DNA of 64,000 nucleotides from Acidobacteriota bacterium. GTDB taxonomy: Bacteria > Acidobacteriota > UBA890 > WLXD01. Of this stretch, positions 45,180 through 56,185 are shown piece by piece. The notes under the pieces were generated by a model. The model was not told the origin of the DNA and did not search any database. It saw nothing but the letters and a program-made list of their open reading frames with translations. Position 1 is the first letter of the stretch. Every line of letters starts with the position of its first letter. Made by a program: the position numbers and the translations under genes. The DNA is taken from NCBI GenBank assembly GCA_963666055.2, contig CAXWPH010000014.1, positions 224,001-288,000 of the forward strand, in the 5' to 3' direction.

Positions 45180-48023
45180 TTACCAATCGAACGAGCGCGT
45201 GACCTTGAGGGTGAGCGAGCGGTCGTGGCGTCCGAAGCGGAGTCCATCGTAGGCGCCCGCCTGACGGTAGACGAGATAGATATCGTCGCCGATGCGGTAG
45301 ATGTAACGCAGCCGGGCGAACACCGAGAGCCCGTTTGAAACGTTGCCGTACTGCACCAGCGCGTCGGTGAGCCAGCGGTCCGAAAAGCTGTAGCTGGCGC
45401 GCGCGTTAAGCACGTTGCTCGTGAAGCTGCCACCCGGCAGGTCGATCTTGTTGTAGCTGAAGGTGGGGGCGATGAGCAGCCTCTCACTGAGGCGAAACGT
45501 CAGCCCGGGCGACACCGTGACGATCGTACCGTCGTAGAACTCCCCGATATTCGCGTCGCCGCTCACGCTGATCCAGCGACCGCCAAAGGTGAAATAGAAA
45601 AGGTACAGGGTGTCGAATGTGTACTCGCCCGGTGGAATCGACACGTCGGGGTGGATCTGGAAGGGAAGCTCGAGCCGCTCGAACGTGTTCGAGTAGTAAG
45701 CACCTATACCGTCCCCCGACTCGGTGTTGAGGAAGCCGCCGTACCACGACTCGCGGCTCACGAGGTCGCCCCTGGTATCGTGGAAGGTCGTGTAGTTGAC
45801 ATCGAAGTTCACCGACCGCAGCCAAGAGATATCAGGCCGTGGATTCCACGCACCGCGGAAGGCTCGCCGCACGACGTCATCGCGCAGGACGAAGCCCAGA
45901 TCGCTACGGAAGTCGGGGTCGACGCGCATGATGTCGAAGCTGGCGCGCCACAGATCGCTCTGCCAGCCGACGCCGAACTGGCCGGCGAACTTACCTTCCT
46001 CGACGTCGTCGTCGGTAGCCCGGGCGGCAAAAGCGGAAATGTTGAGGTTGTCGAAGAAGGTAAAGCTGGCGTCGGCGCCGACAACCGTGTTGGTGGCCCC
46101 GTCCGCACCTTCGACGTTGGTTACCAGCGCACCCACGCTCGATCGGGCCAGCACATCCTGACGCCAGCGCAACGCCGTGAACCCCTGTCCCGCGCCCAAC
46201 ACGGAGTCGTCCGTGCGGACGTGGAGGAAGCCGACGCTGCCGCCTCCGACCTTGCCGGTCATCTTGGTACCGAAGTCGATCGGGATTGGGACGCCCGACG
46301 GCGACAGCCCGATGTTGCGCGAGTGGAAAAGCCGCAGCACCGGTGCGCTGAAGCCACTTCCACCGCTCGGACCGAAGCTGAAGTTGTTGGCGCCCTCGAG
46401 GAAGAAGTCGCGCTTTTCCGGGAAGAACAGTGAGAAGCGCGTCAGGTTGACACGCTGGTCGTCGAGCTCGACCTGGGCGAAATCGGTGTTGTAGGTCAGG
46501 TCGGCGGTCAGGTTCGAGGTGAGCTTGATCTTGAGATCGTCGATGCCGAACTGCTCGTCGATGTCGTTCGCACGTCCCGGATCCTCGAACAGCGAAGTGG
46601 CGTTACCGAGGAAGTACGGCCGCAGGCGGAACCGCTGGGTCACCGAGAGGTCCTGGAAGCCGCGCAGGTCGCCGGCCTGCGACACAGCGATGAACCGGAA
46701 GTCGCGCCGGTAGTTGCTCCAGGCAACCTGCTCGTTCTTGCGGCGGATCTGGCGCTCGAAGTCGACGCCCCAGTCGGCCAGGCCGGTGGAGAAGCGCAAG
46801 ATCCCGAGAGGGATGACCAGCTCGGCCTCCCAGCCGCGTGAGGTGATCTGCGCCGCCGCTTCCCAAGCCTCGTCCCATTCGGAGTTGATCTGACTTTCGT
46901 TGCGGATGGTGGCGTCGTAGCGCGCGCCCAGCGGATTGACCCTGAACAGGAAGGCGCTGCGTCCGTCGTGGAAGGTATCCAGCACGACGCTGAAGGTGTC
47001 ATCCGAGCCGCCGCCACCTCCACCGCCGCCGAAGAACCCTCCGCCGCCGCCAAGCGCGTCACGTCGCAGCTCACTGGCAAGAATACCGCTCGGGTTCGTG
47101 TCGTAGGCGATCAGCCCGACGTAAAGGTTCTGGTCGTCGTACAGAATGCGCACCTCAGTGCGCTCAGATGCGGGCCGTCCTTCCTGTGGCTCGCGTTGCA
47201 GGAAGTCGGTGGCGACGTCGGCCAGGGCCCAAACGGCGTCATCGACGATGCCGTCCATCACCGGAGCCTCAACGGTACGTGTCACGGTCATGTCGGGAGC
47301 CACACCGGGTGCTCGCGCCGATCGGGGTCGGGCCACTCCGAACACCGCCTCGGGCTCGGTGGGCGCCGGAATGCCGGCGCCTCCCGGGCCCGTCGCACGC
47401 CCGGGAACGACGGTGGGCAAACTCCTTGGTCCCGTCGGTCGCCTGGCGGAGTCACCGGGATTGATCGGTTGTACCAGGAGGTACCCGGGGCCGCCCGGAG
47501 GTACGGCCATCGCGTCGCTTGCAACCAACGGAGCTGGTGCCAGAGGCTGCACACGATCGGGATCCATGACCGGAGCGCCGGCGAGGCGAACGGGCGCGTT
47601 CAGCTCACTCGTCACCACCATACGAACCGGGATATATCTCCTCGGTGCCGGGACGACCACGGTCAGAGGCGCTCGGCGGCGGCCGCCGCCTCCTCCGGTC
47701 CCGGCCGCCCGCACCCTTGGCGAGCTGGCTGGCGTGCTCGAAGCCACCATGCGGACCGGAATCGCACGCCGCCCAGCTGCCCGCTGCGGCCCCGGGGCCT
47801 CGGTCTTGGGCGAGTCGTCCGTGGCCAGCTCAAGCTTGGCGGATTCTGGCCTGGCCCGCTTTGGCCGCCCGGGTTCCACCTTGGCGGATGCAGCTCGGGC
47901 GGACTGAGCCTGGCGCTTGCCCGCTCCAGAACCAGCGTCAGACGGGGTCGAAGCCTGCAGCCGCGGGCTCGCTCCAACCACCAGCGCAATGCAGACGACA
48001 ACAACGAATCTGGGCTTGTGCAC
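45180..48023 (-). CDS. DUF5916-like outer-membrane protein with CBM9-like sugar-binding domain and a long Pro/Ala-rich N-terminal extension
   Basis: Signal peptide 'PRFVVVVCIALVVGASPRLQA', 'PVMDGIVDDAVW', 'TEVRILYD', 'GWEAELVIP', 'NTDFAQVELD...NLTRFSLFFPEKRDFFLEG', beta-barrel-like C-terminus ending 'KVTRSFDW'. GTG start inferred. Confidence 0.8.
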   Translation of the reverse strand: MHKPRFVVVVCIALVVGASPRLQASTPSDAGSGAGKRQAQSARAASAKVEPGRPKRARPESAKLELATDDSPKTEAPGPQRAAGRRAIPVRMVASSTPASSPRVRAAGTGGGGGRRRAPLTVVVPAPRRYIPVRMVVTSELNAPVRLAGAPVMDPDRVQPLAPAPLVASDAMAVPPGGPGYLLVQPINPGDSARRPTGPRSLPTVVPGRATGPGGAGIPAPTEPEAVFGVARPRSARAPGVAPDMTVTRTVEAPVMDGIVDDAVWALADVATDFLQREPQEGRPASERTEVRILYDDQNLYVGLIAYDTNPSGILASELRRDALGGGGGFFGGGGGGGGSDDTFSVVLDTFHDGRSAFLFRVNPLGARYDATIRNESQINSEWDEAWEAAAQITSRGWEAELVIPLGILRFSTGLADWGVDFERQIRRKNEQVAWSNYRRDFRFIAVSQAGDLRGFQDLSVTQRFRLRPYFLGNATSLFEDPGRANDIDEQFGIDDLKIKLTSNLTADLTYNTDFAQVELDDQRVNLTRFSLFFPEKRDFFLEGANNFSFGPSGGSGFSAPVLRLFHSRNIGLSPSGVPIPIDFGTKMTGKVGGGSVGFLHVRTDDSVLGAGQGFTALRWRQDVLARSSVGALVTNVEGADGATNTVVGADASFTFFDNLNISAFAARATDDDVEEGKFAGQFGVGWQSDLWRASFDIMRVDPDFRSDLGFVLRDDVVRRAFRGAWNPRPDISWLRSVNFDVNYTTFHDTRGDLVSRESWYGGFLNTESGDGIGAYYSNTFERLELPFQIHPDVSIPPGEYTFDTLYLFYFTFGGRWISVSGDANIGEFYDGTIVTVSPGLTFRLSERLLIAPTFSYNKIDLPGGSFTSNVLNARASYSFSDRWLTDALVQYGNVSNGLSVFARLRYIYRIGDDIYLVYRQAGAYDGLRFGRHDRSLTLKVTRSFDW

Positions 48024-48312
48024 GACGAGAGATTTCCGGGACCGTGTGGCGGCGACGAGGCTCTGCGCCACTACACTACATCGCCGGTCTGAGGGCACGC
48101 ACGACCTCATCTCCAGCGAAGAGCGAGCGGACGGCCAGATGCGGCCCCGCTTGACCGCTGGGCTGCCGAGGCGGAATGTGCGAAGGGTCCGTAGTGTCCT
48201 CCGGCACGCTTTCCGTCGGGTATGGTGAAGGCGATCACTGGCTGCGTCGCGGTGGCGCTCTGGTCGCTGCGACCAGGCACCGGCTGTGCCGTTGGACGAG
48301 GAGAATTCAAGA

Positions 48313-49302
48313 ATGCCCGGCGATAATGCGTCTTCCCTTCCTCGCCGAAGACCGCTTGCCGGGCTTGCTGGCCGCAGCGTGGTCTTCGCCTGTTGGCTGC
48401 TCGGCATTTGCGCGTCGGGCAGCCCGGCCATTGCCCAGCCGACGCTGATCGGCGCGCGGAGCTGCATCGCGCATGCCGGTGCCAGTGCCCTTGCCCCACC
48501 CCACACGATGGCCGCCTACCGGCGCGCCCTGGAGCTGGGCGCCGATTTCGTCGAGCCCGACCTGCAGCTGACTCGCGACGGCGTGCTCGTGTGCCTGCAC
48601 GATCTCTCGCTCGAGCGAACGACCAATGTCGAGAAGCTGTATCCGGAACGCGCCACGGAGGTCATGCGCGGCGGCCGTCAGGTGAAGGCTTGGCTGGTTA
48701 ATGACTTCACCCTGGACGAGATCCGCCGCCTCGATGTCGGTACCTGGTTCGACCCCGCCTTTGCCGGCGAGCAAGTCCCTACGCTGCAGGAGCTGATCGA
48801 TCTCGTGGCCGGCAAGGCCGGCATCTACCCGGAGACCAAGAACCCTGACTTTTATCTCGAGCGAGGCGTCGACGTCGATCGGAAGCTCCACGAGCTGCTG
48901 GTGAGGAACGGGCTCGACACGCGCCAGGGCCAGCGCCACACGCCGGTCCTCATTCAGTCCTTCCATGAGAGCAGCTTGCGCACCTTGAGACAGCTTGGCG
49001 GCGATCACTACGATCTGATTCAGCTAGTGTGGATCGACCAATGGAGAGATTTTCTGAGCGACGAGGGGCTCGACCACGTGGGCGAGTACGCGCAGGGCGT
49101 CAGCCCGTTCCTGACCTTCGTTCTCGGTGACCCGACGCTCGTCGAAAGGGCCCACGACAGGGGCCTCGCCGTTCACGCTTGGACGGCGTTCGAGGCGTTT
49201 CCACCGAGCGATTTCGATGACGAAGCCGCCTACATTCGGCACCTTCTGAACGACATCGGCCTCGACGGCCTCTTCGTTCACGACCCCGGGCTCTGTCCGT
49301 GA
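48313..49302 (+). CDS. Glycerophosphodiester phosphodiesterase (GDPD), exported
   Basis: 'IAHAGAS..APPHT..AY..A', 'EPDLQLTRDG..VCLHD', 'YPETK', 'IQSF'. Confidence 0.9.
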   Translation: MPGDNASSLPRRRPLAGLAGRSVVFACWLLGICASGSPAIAQPTLIGARSCIAHAGASALAPPHTMAAYRRALELGADFVEPDLQLTRDGVLVCLHDLSLERTTNVEKLYPERATEVMRGGRQVKAWLVNDFTLDEIRRLDVGTWFDPAFAGEQVPTLQELIDLVAGKAGIYPETKNPDFYLERGVDVDRKLHELLVRNGLDTRQGQRHTPVLIQSFHESSLRTLRQLGGDHYDLIQLVWIDQWRDFLSDEGLDHVGEYAQGVSPFLTFVLGDPTLVERAHDRGLAVHAWTAFEAFPPSDFDDEAAYIRHLLNDIGLDGLFVHDPGLCP

Positions 49303-49325: not shown

Positions 49326-49605
49326 CTAGCAGGCCGTGGTGAAAGTGTGGTGGGTCTGGCGACAGGGTCTTGCGAAGTGCAGGCAAGGAGAAGAGGAGGA
49401 GGCGATGGTTACCGCATCGTTGACGAGGAACGACGCAGCATGCGCGCGCAACCCCCTGTCGCCCGAAGGGTTACGGCGAGTTGGGGCCATTTGCGGTGTT
49501 GGCCTTCCTGGACGATGGCCGGGGCATCGCCTGCGTCAGGCCGCCTTGCATCTGGCCCCAACTCGCCGTAACCAGACCCACCACACTTTCACCACGGCCT
49601 GCTAG
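49326..49605. mobile_element. MITE-like palindromic element, copy 2 (~280 bp)
   Basis: Perfect 34-bp terminal inverted repeat CTAGCAGGCCGTGGTGAAAGTGTGGTGGGTCTGG / CCAGACCCACCACACTTTCACCACGGCCTGCTAG. Internal stems GGCGACAGGG/CCCTGTCGCC and GGTTACGGCGAGTTGGGGCC/GGCCCCAACTCGCCGTAACC. Confidence 0.85.
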
Positions 49606-49740
49606 TCGCCATCGCGATCCTGTCGCGCCTCTCTGCCGGTCGCTTTCTGTAGGCGCTTAAAAGGCGACCGCCTGAAAAGCCGCCTGCATGGCCTTCCAAC
49701 GGGAGAGTATTCGTTTTGTTCACCCGTTTGGGAGGTAAGA

Positions 49741-50064
49741 ATGGGCCAAGCTTCCTGGGAGCGCAGGATCCAAGAATCCAAGCGCCGTGCTGTCAGCTGT
49801 TTCCTCGTACTTCTACTGAGCCTGGTGGTTCTGTCTGTACCCACGACGCCCTCGCTGGCGGACACAGACGCGGCGCCGACGATGACTGCCACCGAGCAGA
49901 GCAGCTTGTTCTGGGTCGGCCTGGCATACCTGACAGAAGACCGACGGGCGAGCGCCATGGTAGGCGCTGTGGGTGTGCTCCAGACGTCAATCAACTCGGC
50001 GATCATCGGAGCCGTGTTCGGCGGGCCGGCGGGCTTCGCCGCGGGCGTCGGTTACGGACTCTAG
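49741..50064 (+). CDS. Putative bacteriocin/RiPP precursor (circular bacteriocin-like): signal peptide plus hydrophobic Gly/Ala-rich core
   Basis: Strong GGGAGG RBS. 107 aa with basic n-region, h-region 'FLVLLLSLVVLSV', 'SLA|D' and C-terminus 'LFWVGLAYL...IIGAVFGGPAGFAAGVGYGL'. First gene before SpoIIM/Yip1/ABC. Confidence 0.75.
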   Translation: MGQASWERRIQESKRRAVSCFLVLLLSLVVLSVPTTPSLADTDAAPTMTATEQSSLFWVGLAYLTEDRRASAMVGAVGVLQTSINSAIIGAVFGGPAGFAAGVGYGL

Positions 50065-50086
50065 TCGGTCGACAGATCCACCTCAG

Positions 50087-50118
50087 GGGGCGGAGCTCAG
50101 CACCTGTGAGCCCGCCCC
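50087..50118 (+). terminator. GC-rich stem-loop after the precursor gene (no U-tract; mRNA stabiliser or partial terminator)
   Basis: GGGGCGG(A)GCTCA-GCACCTG-TGAGCCCGCCCC. Confidence 0.55.
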
Positions 50119-50139
50119 GAGGAGATCCCAGCGGGTGGC

Positions 50140-50724
50140 GTGGAACCAACTGCGACAGCGAGATCGTTGACCATGCCTGCAATGGCTGCGGCGGTACTTT
50201 GGGGAGCGTCGGCGACCGTCGGGGCAGGTCTTTACATCGACTCGACCCCGCTGGCTCTTAGCTCCGATTCCGCCGCCGTGCTCGACACCGACCGAGCCGC
50301 CGTGTCGTTCGGAGTGATCCTGGCGCGCAACTTGTGGGTCTTCGGAATCAATATCGCAGGTGTAGCCAGTCTGGGAATCAGCACCCTTGGCTCTGTCGTT
50401 GCGAACGGGCTTCAGGCAGGCATGGTGCTTGGGCAGGCTTACCGAGAAGGCCTCGGCCTCAGTTCACTCGTCGCAGTAACTCTTCCCCATAGCCTCGAGC
50501 TTGTCGCGCTGTGGCTTTCAGCGGCTGTAGGGTTCCTCGGCCCTCGCCTGGCGATGTCGTTGGTGAACGACAGCGAGCTCCCGGCCTCACTCAGGCCACA
50601 GACGCTTGCCCTGGTCGTGCTTGCACTTGCGGGGTTGATCGTCACGGCAGCCGCCTTGGAGACAGGCGTGTCGTTGCCTATGGCGGAGCGTATTCGAAGC
50701 ACGGCGTCGGAGATCGGCTCGTGA
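50140..50724 (+). CDS. SpoIIM / DUF95 family membrane protein
   Basis: 'ILARNL', 'VANG..AG', 'LPHSLELVALWLSAAVG', 'LIVTAAALETGVS' match the N..NG..PH..E..AA..E pattern of DUF95. Start GTG 50140 or ATG 50173. Confidence 0.85.
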   Translation: MEPTATARSLTMPAMAAAVLWGASATVGAGLYIDSTPLALSSDSAAVLDTDRAAVSFGVILARNLWVFGINIAGVASLGISTLGSVVANGLQAGMVLGQAYREGLGLSSLVAVTLPHSLELVALWLSAAVGFLGPRLAMSLVNDSELPASLRPQTLALVVLALAGLIVTAAALETGVSLPMAERIRSTASEIGS

Positions 50725-51278
50725 CCTTCGACACGGGGACCGACAGGTTTCTATCCACACTCCTGGTTGTTGGCACAGCGCTCGTACAAGGTCAGATCTC
50801 AGCCACCGTTGCCAGCAGCATCACCACTGTCATCATGCCGGCCTGGGCAGCACTCTTCGCGGGCTTCAACGGACTGATGACCTGTGCTCTGGCGATCGTT
50901 TTCTGGCTGCTCATAACCGCAATGGCTCACATCATCTGCCTGATCATGGATGGCCGAGGTGACTACGGTCGTTTCGTTGTAGGCGCTGGCTACGGTTATC
51001 TCCCCTACTTCCTGACTACGCTGATTACACTCGTGGCGGTGATCGACATCTCACCTCAGATCTCTGCGGCCCTAGAGTCGGGTGAGATGATCGGGGCTCC
51101 GTTACGCGCTCGGCTACGTTGGTACGGAGCACTCAACAACGCGGCGCAGGTGCTGTTGTTCGGCTGGGTGGCAGTAGCGGCACGGCGAGTCCACGGCGTT
51201 ACGATGGTTACGGCCGTGATGAGCGTGTTCGCACCTGTCGGGGCTGTCCTTCTAGCCCGCGGCGTGCTCGTAACATGA
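50721..51278 (+). CDS. Yip1-like membrane protein
   Basis: GTGA overlap with the SpoIIM stop. About 5 TM segments, 'AHIICLIMDGRGDY...GYGYLP', 'ARRVHGV' (Yip1-type pattern). Confidence 0.72.
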   Translation: MTFDTGTDRFLSTLLVVGTALVQGQISATVASSITTVIMPAWAALFAGFNGLMTCALAIVFWLLITAMAHIICLIMDGRGDYGRFVVGAGYGYLPYFLTTLITLVAVIDISPQISAALESGEMIGAPLRARLRWYGALNNAAQVLLFGWVAVAARRVHGVTMVTAVMSVFAPVGAVLLARGVLVT

Positions 51279-51997
51279 GGGGTGTTGCTCCAGCAGACAC
51301 GACGCTGCGCTGTACGGACTTGTCTCGGACCTATTGCAGACGAGAGGTACTGTGCATCGACGATCTGGTTATCAAGCCTGGTGAACGGATCGTCGTCGTT
51401 GGCCCGAATGGCGCCGGGAAGACCACCTGGCTGCGGATACTCCTCGATCTGGTTCGACCAACCGGCGGCACAACCACCTTTGGTCTTCTCTCGCCGCAGC
51501 AGGCACGGCGCCAAGGCCTGCTAAGCGGGTACCTGGGCGAGGATTTTCTGATCCCCTATCTGACCGTGGATGAGTACCTGGCGTTCGTCGGCCGATCCTT
51601 CGGGTTGGAGACGGTTGAGATTGCCACCGCGAGGCAGGAGCTCGACGAGTTCATCGGCTTTGACGGGTCGGCCAAGCTGATCCGCCAGCTCTCCACCGGT
51701 ATGGGCCAGAAAGTCGGGCTCGCCGGTGCGCTGTTGGCAAACTCACCGATCCTGGTACTCGACGAGCCGTTTGCCAACCTTGATCCACCGTCTTGCTTGT
51801 CACTCATACGCCAGCTCCAAACACGCCACGCATCGACCAACGCCACGCACATCGTGTCGAGCCACAGCCTCGAGTACGTTGCCGACATCGCCGACCGCGT
51901 CCTCCTGTTGGAGCAAGGTCACATCATCTGGGACGAGACCGAGTACACCCAGGCCAGCTTGCGCCGGCATTTCAGCCAGGACGCTTGGCGATGCTGA
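51275..51997 (+). CDS. ABC transporter ATP-binding protein
   Basis: ATGA overlap. Walker A 'GPNGAGKTT', signature 'LSTGMGQK', Walker B 'LVLDEPF', H-loop 'SSHSL'. Confidence 0.93.
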   Translation: MRGVAPADTTLRCTDLSRTYCRREVLCIDDLVIKPGERIVVVGPNGAGKTTWLRILLDLVRPTGGTTTFGLLSPQQARRQGLLSGYLGEDFLIPYLTVDEYLAFVGRSFGLETVEIATARQELDEFIGFDGSAKLIRQLSTGMGQKVGLAGALLANSPILVLDEPFANLDPPSCLSLIRQLQTRHASTNATHIVSSHSLEYVADIADRVLLLEQGHIIWDETEYTQASLRRHFSQDAWRC

Positions 51998-53472
51998 TCG
52001 AATCGCTGCTGCGACACGAAGCTACTCGTATTCGCCGAGGTCTCGGGTTCACCGCGACCCGCCTCGGCATCAGGATCGGCCTGGCAACCCTGTTGCTTCC
52101 GCTCGTCGGCATGTGCTTCGCACTGGGAATGGTGTGGGTTCAGGCAACATCCGAGCTTGGAATCGACGGGATCGCGGCTCTTTCCAGGTACGCCCTACCG
52201 TGCTTGGTGGTCTTGACGACCGTTCGTGTAGCCTTCGACCGCGGCGTCGGACTCAACCCGATTCCATATGTGGCACTAGCCTGTTCCCGCCGCAGCTTGA
52301 CGGCATTCGTGATCGTCCGATCACTGTTCAATAAATACGCCTTGATTGTCTGCTTGTTCGCCAGCGGTTTGCTGCTCGCGTCACGGCTGGCACAAGGGGC
52401 CAGCGAGCGGGTGCCCCCGAGCTGGTTCATCGCGCTGGCGACGATCTGGATCGTCGCTGATCTCGCCGTGCATACGCTGAGGAGATGGCTCTTCCGGAGG
52501 TCCGTCGGTTACGTGATTCTTACGGGGCTGGGCCTCACGGCGGTATCGCTGGGCTGGCTGTCGAATCTTTCGAGCGCCTACTTTGCCTGGGCCGAGACAT
52601 CTCAAAGGGCAGCAATCTCCACCGGGCTCGCGGCCCTGTGCGCAGCTGTCTGGGCCGCGTACTTGAGCCTCGTGGAGTCGACCTATCTGGATACCGCGGC
52701 AATGGCCGACGGCCGGCGGCCGTGGCCCCTCGTGAGTCAGTTGCTGAGATCAGCCAACTCCGCAACCCGCTACGCAGCGCTCATGCTCTGCCTGATAGCC
52801 CGGGTCCCCAAGGCCCGGACCGCCATACTGGGCGGCGCCCTGATGACCGGAGCCGCTGTCTTGATCTATTGGCTCAATCCCGGCTACGGCGACAACCAGC
52901 TCATCGGCATGGGTGTTCTCGCTGGGTTCTACAGCAGCGGGAGTCTGGCCTTCTTCATCGGGCAGCTGGGATTGAGCTGGCAGAGCAGCTTCTACGATCT
53001 TCTGGCGTACGCCGAGCGCCACGAACGCGACGTTGTCCGCGGGCAAATTCTGAGCCTTCGATCACTCGTGCTCATTCAGTATGCGCTCGCGGCGCTCCTG
53101 TTCGCTGCAATCCTCGACGGTGGACTCTTCGTAGCGACCAGCTTCGCGATCTTCAATTTCGGCTGTGTGCCCCCCGTTTGTGTGTGGATCTCCCTCAGCA
53201 ACTCTCGGCGAATTGACCCCTACGACTCTGCCTTCTTCTCCCAGGAAGGAACCTCCAGCGCGGTTGAATCGTCGCTGGGAACCGCTGTTCTCGTCGCCAT
53301 TCCGCTCCTACTGAGCTTCGCCGCAATCTCTTCGGAGACCGCAGGTCTGATTGCCATCGGCGCCACAGGCGCCGCCGGTATCGTCGTAGGCCCCGCGATT
53401 GAACGACGACTCGCATCGCTCCGCAGGTCGCGACGCTACGTCCTCGCTCACCAGCTGAGACAGCGTGCTTGA
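51991..53472 (+). CDS. Large polytopic membrane protein (putative ABC permease, DUF5687-like)
   Basis: 493 aa, about 12 hydrophobic segments, overlaps the ABC stop. 'GQLGLSWQSSFYDLL' and 'NSRRID..SAFF' recall DUF5687 proteins (from memory, needs an HMM check). Confidence 0.7.
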   Translation: MLIESLLRHEATRIRRGLGFTATRLGIRIGLATLLLPLVGMCFALGMVWVQATSELGIDGIAALSRYALPCLVVLTTVRVAFDRGVGLNPIPYVALACSRRSLTAFVIVRSLFNKYALIVCLFASGLLLASRLAQGASERVPPSWFIALATIWIVADLAVHTLRRWLFRRSVGYVILTGLGLTAVSLGWLSNLSSAYFAWAETSQRAAISTGLAALCAAVWAAYLSLVESTYLDTAAMADGRRPWPLVSQLLRSANSATRYAALMLCLIARVPKARTAILGGALMTGAAVLIYWLNPGYGDNQLIGMGVLAGFYSSGSLAFFIGQLGLSWQSSFYDLLAYAERHERDVVRGQILSLRSLVLIQYALAALLFAAILDGGLFVATSFAIFNFGCVPPVCVWISLSNSRRIDPYDSAFFSQEGTSSAVESSLGTAVLVAIPLLLSFAAISSETAGLIAIGATGAAGIVVGPAIERRLASLRRSRRYVLAHQLRQRA

Positions 53473-54527
53473 ACCGGGCCACGGCCTGGATAGGGTCTGT
53501 TCCACGACAGCTCGTAGCTGTCTTCCCGGTAGTCGTAGTAGTACTGATGTTCGAAGCCGAGGCTCTCGTAGAAGGTCGTGCTCTTTCGAACGTCGGTGAC
53601 GTAGAGGGCAGTGCGGGTCTCTCCGGTGAAATCGGCGGCGGGCGTTGCGGGCCCGCCGCAACTTGTCAGCAGGGCCGGCAACGCGACCACCTGAAGGAGC
53701 GAGAACCGGAGGGTCAATGAAGCCCCGCTGGCGCCTTCTTGACGAGTCGTGCTAGCCGCCAACGGCGAGTCCGACGCGTGGGTTACGAGCGCGATGGCCA
53801 GGCTAATCGGGATGGCTCCCAAGAGCAGGTTCCATGCCTGCGGCTGTCCGAATAACAGCCCCCGCGAGCCGAGCTCAGCGATGACGCCGCCGGTCCACAT
53901 GGTAGCCACCACCAACGGCAGGTGCGCGGCGCGACGCACGGCGCGATCGGCGCGTACTAGACGCACGACAAAAACGACGGCCGCCAAGACGGAAAACAGA
54001 TTGGCGATCAGCAGCACGAGTCCGCCGATGATCTGCAACGTCGCCTGCGGAACCATGCCTGCGATCGCCGCCACCAGCCAGGCAACGGCCGGCGGCGCAT
54101 AGAGCGCGACCCGGACAACTCGTGCCACCGACCCGCCGCTCGGAAAGATCAGCGCAAGGTGCAAGAAGGCGGCCTCGGCCAGTGCACAGAATCCCAGGTA
54201 CACGAAGAGGAGGCTGAGCTCGATCCCGGCGTGCGCGGCGCCGATGGTTCCACCCCAGTGGATTCCACCACCCACGCCATACAGCAGTAGGACGACCGTG
54301 AATCGTCCGGGACGCAGCCTCCACGCCGCCGCCCCGCACACCAGAAACAGCACTCCCAGCAGGGTGATCGGCAGACGAAGGCTGTCGGGTATGCTGACCA
54401 GCGAGGACGGCCACAGGAGTGCCATCGCGCGCCAGAGCAAAACGGCGACCGTCGCCAAGATGACCCATCTCCGGCCTTCGTAGCCGGTTTCAACAGCAGA
54501 ACGACTCATTCCATGGTCCTCACTCAT
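53448..54527 (-). CDS. Multi-TM membrane protein reading in frame into a truncated VOC/glyoxalase-like lipoprotein remnant
   Basis: About 8 TM segments, then a signal-like stretch with lipobox 'LLTSC' (TTG at 53717) and a VOC-like start 'ALYVTDVRKSTTFYESLGF' that stops abruptly at the end of the convergent operon. Confidence 0.55.
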   Translation of the reverse strand: MSEDHGMSRSAVETGYEGRRWVILATVAVLLWRAMALLWPSSLVSIPDSLRLPITLLGVLFLVCGAAAWRLRPGRFTVVLLLYGVGGGIHWGGTIGAAHAGIELSLLFVYLGFCALAEAAFLHLALIFPSGGSVARVVRVALYAPPAVAWLVAAIAGMVPQATLQIIGGLVLLIANLFSVLAAVVFVVRLVRADRAVRRAAHLPLVVATMWTGGVIAELGSRGLLFGQPQAWNLLLGAIPISLAIALVTHASDSPLAASTTRQEGASGASLTLRFSLLQVVALPALLTSCGGPATPAADFTGETRTALYVTDVRKSTTFYESLGFEHQYYYDYREDSYELSWNRPYPGRGPVQARCLSW

Positions 54528-54602
54528 CCGGCGAGTGTGGACGACCAGCGCTGAACAGGGGCTGAACGCGCTGCCGAGCGCACGCACGAGGGTGCCAGCG
54601 CT

Positions 54603-55604
54603 CTATGCGGCACCCGTCGCGGGCAATTCGAGGGTCACCTGCAGGCCGCGCTTCGCTGACCGGTCCAGCCTCAGCCCGCCGCCGTATAGCTCGACCAGGG
54701 CCTGGACGATCCGAAGCCCGACGCCACGACGCGGGCTGTGCACCGACTCGGGTCGGCCGGTGGCCAATATCTGGTCTCGCACCGCTTCGCTGAGCCCCGG
54801 TCCGTCGTCCTCGACGACGATGAGCAACCTGTCTTCGGCGGCATGCGCCCGCACCTCGACGCTACCTCGACACCACTTGCAGGCGTTCTCGAGCACGTTG
54901 CCAAGCATCTCCTCGAGATCTTCCGGATTGCCATGAAAGTTCAGGTCCGGAGGGACCTCGCAACGAATCTCGAGCCGGCGGCCGACGTGCAGCTGGCGCA
55001 TCGCACGCACCAGCCCATCGACGCTCGGAGCGACGGGGCAGGACCCTGTGGGGGGGGGGGGGGGGGGGGGGTGGGCGAGCCGAGCCGCGGCGGCACTGGC
55101 CCTGGACAAGTGCAGCGTCACGCGGTCGCTCATTGCCTCGACCTGTTCGCGCAGGCCCTCGGCTGCGGGGTGGTCGTCCTTTCGCAGCCGCTCGATCTCG
55201 TTGGTGAGAATTGTCAGCGGCGTCTTCAGGCCGTGCGCCAAGCTGTCTGCTTCCAGGTGTGATCGCCGAAGGGCCTCTTGATTGCGCCGCAACAGGTCGT
55301 TGACCTCGTCCACCAGGGGATGCACCTCTGCCGGATACTCGCCTTCGAGCCGGGCAGCCGATCCGTCCCGCACCGGCGCCAGGCGCTGGCCCAGTCGAGC
55401 CAGTGGAAGGAGGCTCGCGGCGACCCGGAGGGCACCGCCCAGCATCAAGCCGAACGCCAGCAAGCAGATAACGCCGACCCAAAAGTCTTCGACTTCCAGA
55501 AAGCCCACGGCGCCGAGCGCCAAGGCGCCGACCGCCCACAGCAGGCCACCGGAAATGATCGCGGAACGGAGTGTGGTGGCACGCGTCAGGCTCCTCACGT
55601 TCAT
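54603..55604 (-). CDS. Sensor histidine kinase (PhoQ/QseC-like)
   Basis: H-box 'LAHGLKTPL', 'GNVLENACKW', 'VEDDGPG', 'GVGL.IV'. Contains a C22 tract encoding poly-Pro. Confidence 0.85.
   Translation of the reverse strand: MNVRSLTRATTLRSAIISGGLLWAVGALALGAVGFLEVEDFWVGVICLLAFGLMLGGALRVAASLLPLARLGQRLAPVRDGSAARLEGEYPAEVHPLVDEVNDLLRRNQEALRRSHLEADSLAHGLKTPLTILTNEIERLRKDDHPAAEGLREQVEAMSDRVTLHLSRASAAAARLAHPPPPPPPTGSCPVAPSVDGLVRAMRQLHVGRRLEIRCEVPPDLNFHGNPEDLEEMLGNVLENACKWCRGSVEVRAHAAEDRLLIVVEDDGPGLSEAVRDQILATGRPESVHSPRRGVGLRIVQALVELYGGGLRLDRSAKRGLQVTLELPATGAA
55050..55071. repeat. G22 homopolymer inside the histidine kinase
   Basis: 22 consecutive G on the + strand. Confidence 0.95.
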
Positions 55605-56185
55605 ACCGTGCGGCCTCGAGCGAGTCCAGCGCCCGGGTGGTCAGAGCCCGTCTGCTCGGGCACTTGATACCCCAGGCCACTCAGCGTGCGGATCAGATCG
55701 CGGCCCAGCTTCCGGCGCAGCCGGGCGATGAACACCTCGATGGTGTTGGAGTCGCGCTCCCAATCCTGCGCGTAGACATGCTCGACGAGCTCCGACACCG
55801 ACACCACCCGGCCCTGATTGTGCAGCAGGTAGCGCAGCACCTTGAGCTCGTACGCGGTCAGATGAACGCGCTCGCCTTCGAGCCTGACCTCGAGCGACCT
55901 CGTATCGAGAGTCACAGCCCCGTGCCGGAGCACCGGCGACGCACGTCCTGCAGAACGTCGCAGTAGCGCCCGCAACCTCGCGAGAAGCTCCTCCATGCGA
56001 AACGGCTTGGGGAGGTAGTCGTCCGCACCCGCGTCTATCCCCGCTACTCTCTCGTGCCATCGGCCACGCACGGTGAGCACGAGGACGGGTGTGGCCACTC
56101 CCTCCGCGCGCAGCTTCTCGAGCACCTGCAGGCCGTCCAGCTGCCTGGCGAGATCGGCCTCATCCTCAACAACGAGTACCCGCAT
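55601..56185 (-). pseudogene. OmpR-family response regulator with an in-frame deletion in the receiver domain
   Basis: 'MRVLVVEDEADLARQL' joins directly to 'DGLQVLEKLR'. The segment with the phospho-accepting Asp is missing. The wHTH domain is intact. Confidence 0.8.

Follow-up and report, generated by a model that had tools for sequence, protein, structure and literature searches.

Does a short gene in an Acidobacteriota genome encode the precursor of a peptide that is cut from its leader and closed head to tail, as it is known for circular bacteriocins, or does it encode a linear peptide or a subunit of a membrane complex? The gene lies at positions 49741 to 50064 of a stretch of 64,000 nucleotides (contig CAXWPH010000014.1, contig positions 224,001 to 288,000), which as a whole is termed the window and to which all coordinates refer unless another locus is named. 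An initial annotation, made from the letters of the sequence, had described an exported precursor with a neutral glycine-zipper core and had compared it to gassericin A and to the cyclic pilins of the TrbC/VirB2 type. The analysis places the product in a so far unnamed family, the peptides of which are small, exported and strongly hydrophobic; the family is genetically coupled to short DUF95/SpoIIM proteins and to Yip1-like proteins. New is the precursor of such a family tied to these two partners in diderm bacteria; already known are archaeal cassettes of DUF95, Yip1 and small membrane proteins, which were described in 2014-15. A maturation like that of circular bacteriocins is likely, in which the end piece of 51-52 residues would be cut out and possibly closed head to tail. 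The joint mechanism, i.e., membrane insertion by a Sec-type leader, DUF95-dependent cleavage at SSL/FW (the slash marks the cut) and head-to-tail ligation, is given a probability of roughly 0.45. The parts of the precursor gene are as follows:

49741..50064, plus strand: precursor gene, 107 amino acids, ATG start, stop codon included; seen from translation, homologues and codon-position bias
49730..49735, plus strand: Shine-Dalgarno-like GGGAGG, 5 nucleotides 5' of the precursor ATG, read directly in the sequence
49741..49860, plus strand: residues 1-40 of the leader, resembling a signal peptide or a signal anchor, with basic n-region, hydrophobic h-region and SLA at -3 to -1
49861..49908, plus strand: acidic, variable spacer, residues 41-56, up to the candidate cut SSL/FW (L56/F57)
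49909..50061, plus strand: candidate core peptide F57-L107, 51 amino acids (52 if starting at L56), with FWVGLAY N-segment, charged loop TEDRR, Gly-zipper helix, GGP motif and C-terminal GYGL

The precursor gene

The precursor gene is real and not a chance open reading frame (ORF), because a strong ribosome-binding site, a bias of the substitutions towards the third codon position and 46 relatives come together here. Compared with the orthologue of a same-genus locus (L016), 19 of 32 substitutions fall into codon position 3 (13 of 16 within the core alone), and compared with the orthologue of L001 these are 38 of 70 (22 of 36 within the core), indicating that purifying selection keeps the ORF 49741-50064 in this frame. 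A chance ORF and a gene on the opposite strand (49602-50006, minus strand) were both considered and were ruled out by the codon-position bias and the homologues. A promoter/terminator scan found neither a sigma-70-like promoter nor a canonical terminator around the gene.

A family of precursors with a conserved hydrophobic core

The family was assembled by a word-indexed search, followed by an exhaustive phmmer search and a profile search, and finally comprises 46 sequences of 52-107 amino acids, with four close and about 40 distant homologues of the precursor. The word-indexed search returned the four close relatives of 107 amino acids and a further one annotated with 60 amino acids, the locus of which encodes the full 107; the phmmer search yielded seven distant representatives. 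Named sources are metagenome-assembled genomes (MAGs) of Acidobacteriota, Segatella (Prevotella) salivae, Cyclobacteriaceae, Balneolales and one MAG labelled Paenibacillus, and a weak match comes from a Methanosarcinales MAG (P0066, E 7e-4). All 46 members are built alike: a signal-like leader, basic and hydrophobic at the N-terminus, is followed by a polar spacer that varies between members and then by the conserved core.

For the precursor of the window it had been claimed that a neutral hydrophobic segment of 52 amino acids with GxxxG repeats forms the C-terminal part, and this is borne out. Segment L56-L107 comprises 52 residues with E66, D67, R68 and R69 as its charged residues (net charge 0), and the glycines at 90, 94, 98, 102 and 106 form four successive GxxxG repeats. 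The isoelectric point is 6.07 and the grand average of hydropathy 0.93 (0.87-0.93 for the core). To compare the members, the core start was set one residue ahead of the conserved aromatic residue, and the counts given for the positions before (P2, P1) and after (P1', P2') the junction rest on the cut placed in this way. P2 is Gly, Ala or Ser in 41/46 members, P1 is polar or charged in 39/46 and Leu in the five sequences of the window's clade, P1' is hydrophobic or small in all 46 and P2' is aromatic in 45. The core measures 55 amino acids in 32 of the 46 members and 51 in the window's clade. It was also expected that conservation runs from LFW to the exact C-terminus, which was found: conservation starts at x-[WYF], for the window by L56/F57, and the C-terminus falls onto one alignment column in 45 of the 46 members, the remaining one being two residues shorter and none carrying a C-terminal extension. 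The penultimate core residue is Gly in 44/46, and the last one is Leu in 39/46 and hydrophobic in all. A G-G-P or G-P-G motif is present in 40/46 cores, and the median segment lengths are 10 residues for the N-segment, 24 for the central segment and 11 after the GGP motif.

The family reaches none of the established ones. The window protein matches no precursor family of Pfam or NCBIfam (BacteriocIIc_cy PF12173, AS-48-type, circularin/uberolysin) at E up to 0.1, with NCBIfam returning chance rows far below the cut-off; the 46 members match no circular-bacteriocin precursor family of Pfam at E up to 1, and no member reaches any Pfam family. For the glycine-zipper families PF13441, PF13436 and PF13488, none of the 46 members lies above the gathering threshold, and 4, 4 and 1 members, respectively, are found at E 0.03-0.11. 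The look-alikes of the precursor in the Atlas score at most 0.83 and are leads only.

Leader, spacer and the candidate cut site

Counting on the translation confirmed the leader architecture proposed in the initial annotation, i.e., a basic n-region, an h-region, SLA/D at residues 40/41 and an acidic spacer. The n-region MGQASWERRIQESKRR is basic with a net charge of +3, and the h-region FLVLLLSLVVLSV covers residues 21-33 with a best 10-residue hydrophobicity of 3.46. It lies within an uncharged run of 24 residues (residues 17-40) ending in SLA/D at 38-40/41, and the spacer DTDAAPTMTATEQSS (residues 41-55, 15 residues) contains three acidic and no basic residues. In a rule-based check of the positive n-region, the 24-residue uncharged run and the small residues at -3/-1, a signal peptide and a signal anchor fit equally. 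Within the family, the n-region is positive in 42/46 members, the other four looking N-terminally truncated or having a charged n-region, and a loose -3/-1 site follows the h-region in 39/46. One subfamily carries a 24-residue uncharged anchor and no -3/-1 site, so that a leader anchored in the membrane and cut just once would agree with the data no less than the two-step processing that had been suggested first.

In the close relatives, five in number, conservation extends to a fair degree to the leader as well, and across the wider family leaders and spacers evolve fast. Family-wide conservation sets in 4-27 residues past any candidate site of signal peptidase I (SPase I). Because this conservation begins at L56/F57, the likely cut is placed there (SSL/FW), with S55/L56 as an alternative. 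The core start before L56 that had been proposed is thus supported in so far as conservation begins nearby; the family alignment puts the cut one residue later, at L56/F57.

The gene cluster of the window

The precursor gene heads an operon of five genes on the same strand, which encode the precursor, a short DUF95/SpoIIM protein, a Yip1-like protein, an ATP-binding cassette (ABC) ATPase and a DUF5687 permease with 12 transmembrane (TM) segments. The elements following the precursor gene are:

50081..50122, plus strand: strong GC-rich hairpin in the gap from the precursor gene to the SpoIIM gene, part of a fold of -45.9 kcal/mol (z -2.7) and not followed by a T-run
50140..50724, plus strand: short DUF95/SpoIIM membrane protein, 194 amino acids, GTG start; PF01944 E 6.3e-11, 42.9 bits against a cut-off of 26.9
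50721..51278, plus strand: Yip1-like membrane protein, 185 amino acids, GTG start overlapping the SpoIIM stop (GTGA); Pfam Yip1 E 5e-6
51275..51997, plus strand: ABC transporter ATP-binding protein, 240 amino acids, ATG overlapping the stop of the Yip1-like gene (ATGA); PF00005 E 6.6e-20
51991..53472, plus strand: DUF5687 multi-pass membrane protein, 493 amino acids; PF18940 E 5.3e-30; start overlapping the ATPase gene by 7 nucleotides

The GTGA, ATGA and 7-nucleotide overlaps at the last three start codons make the genes look translationally coupled. The hairpin is nearly identical in L016 and partly kept in L001 and was not scored as a terminator by the scan; possibly it acts as an attenuator or stabiliser fixing the ratio of precursor to enzyme. 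Next comes GAGGAG, which may serve the SpoIIM gene as ribosome-binding site; this SpoIIM gene is the sole copy in the genome. The Yip1-like protein scores 26.9 bits, just under the Pfam Yip1 cut-off of 28.6, and a profile of seven positional orthologues aligns with bona fide Yip1 with an hhalign probability of 87% (E 4e-6). The DUF5687 protein is likely the permease of an ABC exporter; its neighbours in the Atlas carry DUF5687, 12TM_1 and ABC_export, a kinship by Atlas features, and the literature searched does not mention DUF5687. The G+C content of the cluster is 0.59-0.65, slightly under that of its flanks (0.65-0.72).

Recurrence and patchy distribution of the module

The order of precursor, SpoIIM and a Yip1-like gene of about 200 amino acids recurs in three families of the Acidobacteriota and at two Bacteroidota-like metagenome loci, and the third-gene proteins of these loci form one alignment. 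Within the window's genus, L016 holds all five genes. L001, L005 and L020 kept the precursor, SpoIIM and Yip1-like genes and miss the ABC ATPase and roughly residues 1-233 of the DUF5687 protein (L001:9349-10110); these three records are maybe from one source, and an assembly error is possible for the missing part. The second Acidobacteriota family is represented by L014 and L013, the third by L015, where an extra membrane gene of 130 amino acids joins the module. At L013 (genome G392), a DDE transposase (L013:6991-8328, minus strand; PF13701, E 6e-144) splits SpoIIM beside an intact precursor gene of 83 amino acids, so that this locus was probably inactivated by the transposase. Both Bacteroidota-like contigs, L017 and L018, encode directly upstream of the precursor a protein of 106-109 amino acids with two CxxC pairs (zinc-ribbon-like) and a hydrophobic tail (L017:6645-6965, L018:28-357), which could be a regulator or an extra membrane component. 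A PF01944 protein accordingly stands beside the precursor in L014, L015, L017, L018 and, split, in L013, and the ABC ATPase and DUF5687 genes were found only in the window's genus. At a further locus, L019, no SpoIIM gene appears before the contig end, and a Yip1 gene lies 4 kb off, across a transposase.

Three of the five species in the genus carry the precursor, the 21 other genomes from the order all lack it, and a sample of 401 genomes of the phylum gave six credible matches in three families. This distribution looks accessory, because the presence is patchy and because one locus carries an insertion sequence (IS) and another a deletion. A clean insertion site was not definable, as the same-genus genomes without the precursor (G018, G020) share the GDPD gene only and differ in synteny.

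Moreover, the pattern extends beyond the family. In Acidobacteriota, PF01944 proteins of the long type have open frames of about 320-650 amino acids and match at E 1e-23 to 1e-39; the window protein represents a short, divergent type. Sixteen other short-type SpoIIM loci of this phylum (L060-L075) were examined for upstream precursor-like ORFs with a filter that was written after seeing examples and that recovers 6/8 known loci. Such an ORF lies upstream on the same strand in 8/16 of these loci, and the controls gave 0/16 for antisense, 2/16 for downstream and 0/30 for long-type SpoIIM loci with a median of 1,104 nucleotides of upstream sequence. Several of these small genes have a signal-like start and a hydrophobic, Gly/Ala-rich end and are unrelated in sequence. 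A 'Q/WAY.WGM..EEA' family precedes the short SpoIIM at L065, L066 and L070, showing no detectable homology to the window family (hhalign probability 28%), and a 'TQGN/[LM]F' family is followed by SpoIIM and a Yip1-like gene at L063 and L064. Tandem precursor-like pairs occur at L061 and L071.

Comparison with known systems

Circular bacteriocins are valued for their stability, and the mechanism of their ligation is still unsolved. Cores of the gassericin type start with I-Y-W, and their leaders contain a hydrophobic stretch. Published systems are compared here as they are described in excerpts of the cited articles. SpoIIM is named as class-defining for circular bacteriocins (PMC13289728), the clusters often contain overlapping, translationally coupled genes (PMC7132975), an ATP-binding protein in the cluster serves as a mining criterion (PMC8534725) and a small, cationic, hydrophobic immunity protein is a further cluster feature (PMC6131525). 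Leaders range from 2 to 48 residues, with group ii being neutral, hydrophobic and long-leadered, and a role in circularisation is presumed for DUF95, though not on direct evidence (PMC6131525); DUF95 was also proposed to both cleave and ligate (PMC13463998). The predicted precursors stem from Firmicutes (6,925), Actinobacteria (2) and Thermotogae (1) (PMC8534725). For long-leader circular bacteriocins a rule is proposed by which a small residue is preferred at -2 and mirrored at the penultimate core position, the residue at -1 is often charged and the ends are hydrophobic (PMC13463998). The cut placed for the window family fits this rule, with a small P2, a polar P1, a hydrophobic P1' and a Gly-Leu C-terminus.

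In plantacyclin B21AG the gene order is precursor, DUF95/SpoIIM, small membrane protein, ATPase and membrane transporter (PMC7452424). With group ii (gassericin A, acidocin B, plantaricyclin A/plantacyclin B21AG) the window shares the gene order, a near-neutral, very hydrophobic core, a long leader and a core start with a hydrophobic and then an aromatic residue. However, the window family shows no detectable sequence similarity to group ii (a PF12173 cluster appears merely at Atlas rank 20 with a score of 0.76, a lead only), its core has 51-55 instead of 58 amino acids and is predicted as a helix plus a long helix rather than a four-helix bundle, its producers are diderm, its third gene is Yip1-like and not an immunity protein of 54 amino acids, and most lineages have no ATPase gene. 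By the neighbourhood, where SpoIIM, the Yip1-like protein, the ABC ATPase and the permease adjoin the precursor, the connection with circular bacteriocins drawn at the outset is much stronger than could be seen at that stage; in sequence, no relation to gassericin-type peptides was detected. Altitudin S has a leader of 56 residues, similarly long as that of the window family (55-56); its core of 76 residues is strongly cationic and saposin-like and its cluster holds an M48 metallopeptidase, both unlike the window (10.1101/2025.10.31.685828).

A search of the window SpoIIM against 72,556 plasmids gave one match, the DUF95 protein of a cluster on the Bacillus thuringiensis plasmid pH3-180 (CP052063). 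Both proteins share N64, G74, G79, G90, G94, P116-H117, E120 and E174, among which N64, P116-H117, E120 and E174 are invariant. As an observation on this plasmid, two tandem Ala/Gly/Val-rich peptides of 63 and 65 amino acids ending in GW, annotated 'hypothetical protein' (L021:3999-4411), precede genes for a large membrane protein, DUF95 and an ABC ATPase, and a YIP1 gene lies nearby; the locus looks like an unannotated two-peptide circular bacteriocin cluster. In DUF95, ABC ATPase, YIP1 and small Ala/Gly-rich peptides ending at the stop codon, the cerecyclin-type clusters of the B. cereus group and the pH3-180 cluster resemble the window (PMC8534725). Unlike in the window family, their leaders are short and not signal-like, and the YIP1 gene of pH3-180 is divergently placed and does not directly follow DUF95. 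Its large 'B' protein has no Pfam family and shows no similarity to DUF5687 (BLASTP E 0.63).

Cassettes of three or four genes with a DUF95 paralogue, Yip1 and small, fast-evolving proteins of three TM segments, sometimes with an ABC transporter, are described for archaea (PMC5898192). The arCOG01996 (DUF95)-arCOG02054 (Yip1)-arCOG09673 cassettes (Makarova et al. 2014, 2015) comprise the same three kinds of genes as the window in island-like loci; they differ in being archaeal, and the excerpts of the sources do not treat their small proteins as cleaved or cyclised precursors (PMC5898192, PMC4158269). The window has the gene content of such a cassette, and the likeness refers to this content. 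Glycine-zipper proteins (Gly-zipper_YMGG, Gly-zipper_OmpA, Gly-zipper_Omp) and Bacteriocin_IIc are alike in the repeated GxxxG face of a C-terminal helix. Their matches all stay sub-threshold (in 4, 4, 1 and 2 of the 46 members, respectively, with best E values from 0.032 to 0.56), and the window differs from them in lacking a double-glycine leader and in its gene context.

Predicted structure of the core

For the core of the window, a fold with three helices was predicted at a mean confidence (predicted local distance difference test, pLDDT) of 60.4. The 55-residue core of the L017 relative was modelled with AlphaFold from 47 aligned sequences at a pLDDT of 93.2 and a predicted template modelling score of 0.67, with helices at residues 2-11, 16-41 and 43-54. 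The VIA wide search gave generic helical matches only; the best ones of this model (Z 5.2 and 4.8) were single helices of LH1 antenna polypeptides, and on one of them residues 16-55 superpose at a root-mean-square deviation of 1.0 angstrom over 40 residues. Foldseek found no match in the PDB for either core model, and the family profile found no solved structure in the PDB at E up to 10 beyond chance rows. Within the core, neither the segment before the charged loop (about 10 residues) nor the one after GGP (11 residues) is long enough to cross a membrane by itself. If both were joined, they would equal the central helix in length, and a closed two-helix hairpin could be formed.

Proposed maturation and alternative explanations

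In the proposed mechanism, the basic and hydrophobic N-terminus would insert the precursor into the inner membrane via Sec in an N-in/C-out orientation, serving as a cleaved signal or else as a membrane anchor. The conserved site, which has a small P2, a polar P1 (Leu in the window's clade), a hydrophobic P1' and an aromatic P2' and reads SSL/FW in the window, would be cut by the DUF95 protein; this protein carries the invariant N, PH..E and E motifs and would be aided by the Yip1-like protein. The DUF95 protein would then join F57 (or L56) to L107, yielding a neutral ring of 51-52 residues. The segment lengths suggest that this ring may consist of two antiparallel helices of membrane length, the central Gly-zipper helix of about 24 residues and the C-segment (11) fused to the N-segment (about 10). 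The ABC ATPase and the DUF5687 permease might expel the peptide from the membrane of the producer, either for export or for self-protection, and the product might act on the membranes of competitors. The Yip1-like protein could take the role of an immunity protein.

Several findings weigh against this mechanism. The core of 51-55 amino acids lies below the 58-76 amino acids of circular bacteriocins in the literature compared, and searches of Pfam, NCBIfam and the PDB linked its sequence neither to a known family of circular bacteriocins nor to a solved structure. The saposin-like bundle with adjacent termini that had been expected is not borne out by the only confident model, that of the L017 relative, in which a short helix folds back on a nearly continuous helix of about 40 residues, a fold other than a saposin-like or four- to five-helix bundle, and in which the ends are probably tens of angstroms apart; the model of the window core reaches a pLDDT of only 60. 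This predicted fold lowers the odds of cyclisation. The ABC ATPase of the published criterion was not found in the examined flanks of L014, L013, L015, L017 and L018, the stretch from 50064 to 53472, where the genes abut or overlap, holds no separate small gene for a cationic immunity protein, and the cluster encodes no route across the outer membrane. Furthermore, SpoIIM is not bacteriocin-specific, PF01944 being present in 126/401 Acidobacteriota genomes, mostly as the longer type, and the similar archaeal cassettes are interpreted as membrane-remodelling or defence complexes. The peptide is hence described as working like a circular bacteriocin and not as a member of that class: it is filed outside because its sequence belongs to none of the known families and its length falls below the known range, and the fold leans against membership.

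It is possible, and has an appreciable chance of being right, that the product is a linear, Sec-exported glycine-zipper peptide, which is cut by SPase I at SLA/D or not cut any further. It would form a long helix or hairpin, oligomerise by its GxxxG face and act as a pore-forming toxin or membrane modulator, and the tasks of SpoIIM, of the Yip1-like protein and of the ABC pump would be immunity or handling rather than ligation. The L017 model with its long helix and short N-terminal helix, resembling single membrane helices, would suit such a peptide, as would the five glycines in i, i+4 spacing, the weak, sub-threshold matches to P22_gp7 (7/46) and Gly-zipper_YMGG (4/46) with best E values of 0.02-0.03, the loose -3/-1 sites after most h-regions and the lack of the ABC ATPase in most lineages. 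However, a linear peptide leaves unexplained why a small-polar/hydrophobic-aromatic junction is conserved 4-27 residues past the SPase I candidates, why the C-terminus is fixed to the residue in almost all members and why a short DUF95 protein is the constant partner, which in the excerpts of the literature is not reported for any linear bacteriocin class. Moreover, its end segments would each be too short to cross the membrane.

Rather improbable is that the protein stays unprocessed and, with its three hydrophobic segments, is built as a small integral subunit into a membrane complex of SpoIIM and Yip1. Such a complex would have a role in the envelope or in membrane remodelling, as considered for the arCOG01996 cassettes, instead of an antimicrobial one. 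For the archaeal cassettes of DUF95, Yip1 and small 3-TM proteins, membrane remodelling or vesicle formation was suggested, and the SpoIIM of B. subtilis is described as a scaffold and not as an enzyme (PMC5898192); in the window precursor, the n-region and the 24-residue uncharged run could be an uncleaved anchor. The patchy distribution at strain level, with one IS-disrupted and one partly deleted locus, argues against such a subunit, and so do the fast-evolving leaders and spacers and the several unrelated precursor families beside short SpoIIM genes, which look like conflict or accessory genes and not like housekeeping genes. The archaeal loci themselves were earlier read by the same authors as membrane-associated defence beside an ABC transporter of the antimicrobial-peptide type (PMC4158269).

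In proteins of the TrbC/VirB2 type, a signal peptide precedes a short hydrophobic peptide, and cyclisation of the latter takes place in the periplasm; the initial annotation had drawn on this analogy. A conjugative pilin cyclised after removal of its signal peptide is disfavoured and extremely improbable: the likeness is one of general layout (signal peptide, short hydrophobic two-helix protein, possibly an exact C-terminus), but neither the eight neighbours that were scanned nor the ORFs of 44-56 kb include a type IV secretion protein, a relaxase or a TraF-like peptidase, no pilin family of Pfam is matched at E up to 0.1-1, and the conserved partners in every lineage examined are SpoIIM and Yip1-like proteins.

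Implications

In the literature searched on Bacteroidota, Acidobacteriota and Gram-negative DUF95, which for Acidobacteriota comprised titles and the starts of abstracts and for DUF95 the matches listed, no Gram-negative producer of a circular bacteriocin was found. If the peptide is cyclised, this antibiotic class would extend to Gram-negative phyla, and three conserved genes together with a Sec-type leader would offer a minimal system to test DUF95 as a protease-ligase. The ABC exporter would then be dispensable where Sec does the export, and Acidobacteriota, Bacteroidota (including an oral Segatella/Prevotella species) and perhaps archaea would be opened to the mining for cyclic peptides. 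A wider claim, which taken as a whole is speculative and rather doubtful, concerns the short type of DUF95/SpoIIM in archaea and in Gram-negative phyla (Acidobacteriota, Bacteroidota). These proteins would process precursors exported by Sec, a class hidden so far, and would close them head to tail into membrane peptides at the outer side of the cytoplasmic membrane, with no dedicated ABC exporter needed. The product of the window would then be the smallest known circular bacteriocin (51-52 residues), a ring of two antiparallel helices of membrane length closed by a glycine zipper and unlike a saposin-like bundle, and the archaeal 'dark matter' DUF95-Yip1 cassettes and the Firmicute clusters would be one system. 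If the peptide is linear, the module of peptide, DUF95 and Yip1 would still be uncharacterised and widespread, with a likely role in microbial conflict.

Flanking genes

Upstream, the cluster is flanked by genes for a GDPD phosphodiesterase and a DUF5916 protein, and downstream, in convergent orientation, by genes for a membrane protein of 379 amino acids and a two-component pair. On the minus strand at 45180-48506, the longest ORF comprises 1,108 amino acids with a DUF5916 domain, a weak CBM9 match and a Pro/Ala/Arg-rich N-terminal third of low complexity. Its true start probably lies further in, as the orthologue alignment begins at residue 74 (L016) or 152 (L001). The downstream genes (53448-56185, minus strand) encode the multi-pass membrane protein, a histidine kinase and a response regulator, all 81-96% identical in L016. 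The membrane protein has a short glyoxalase-like C-terminal stretch at E 0.06-0.08 only, and together with the two-component genes it may be co-inherited with the cluster.

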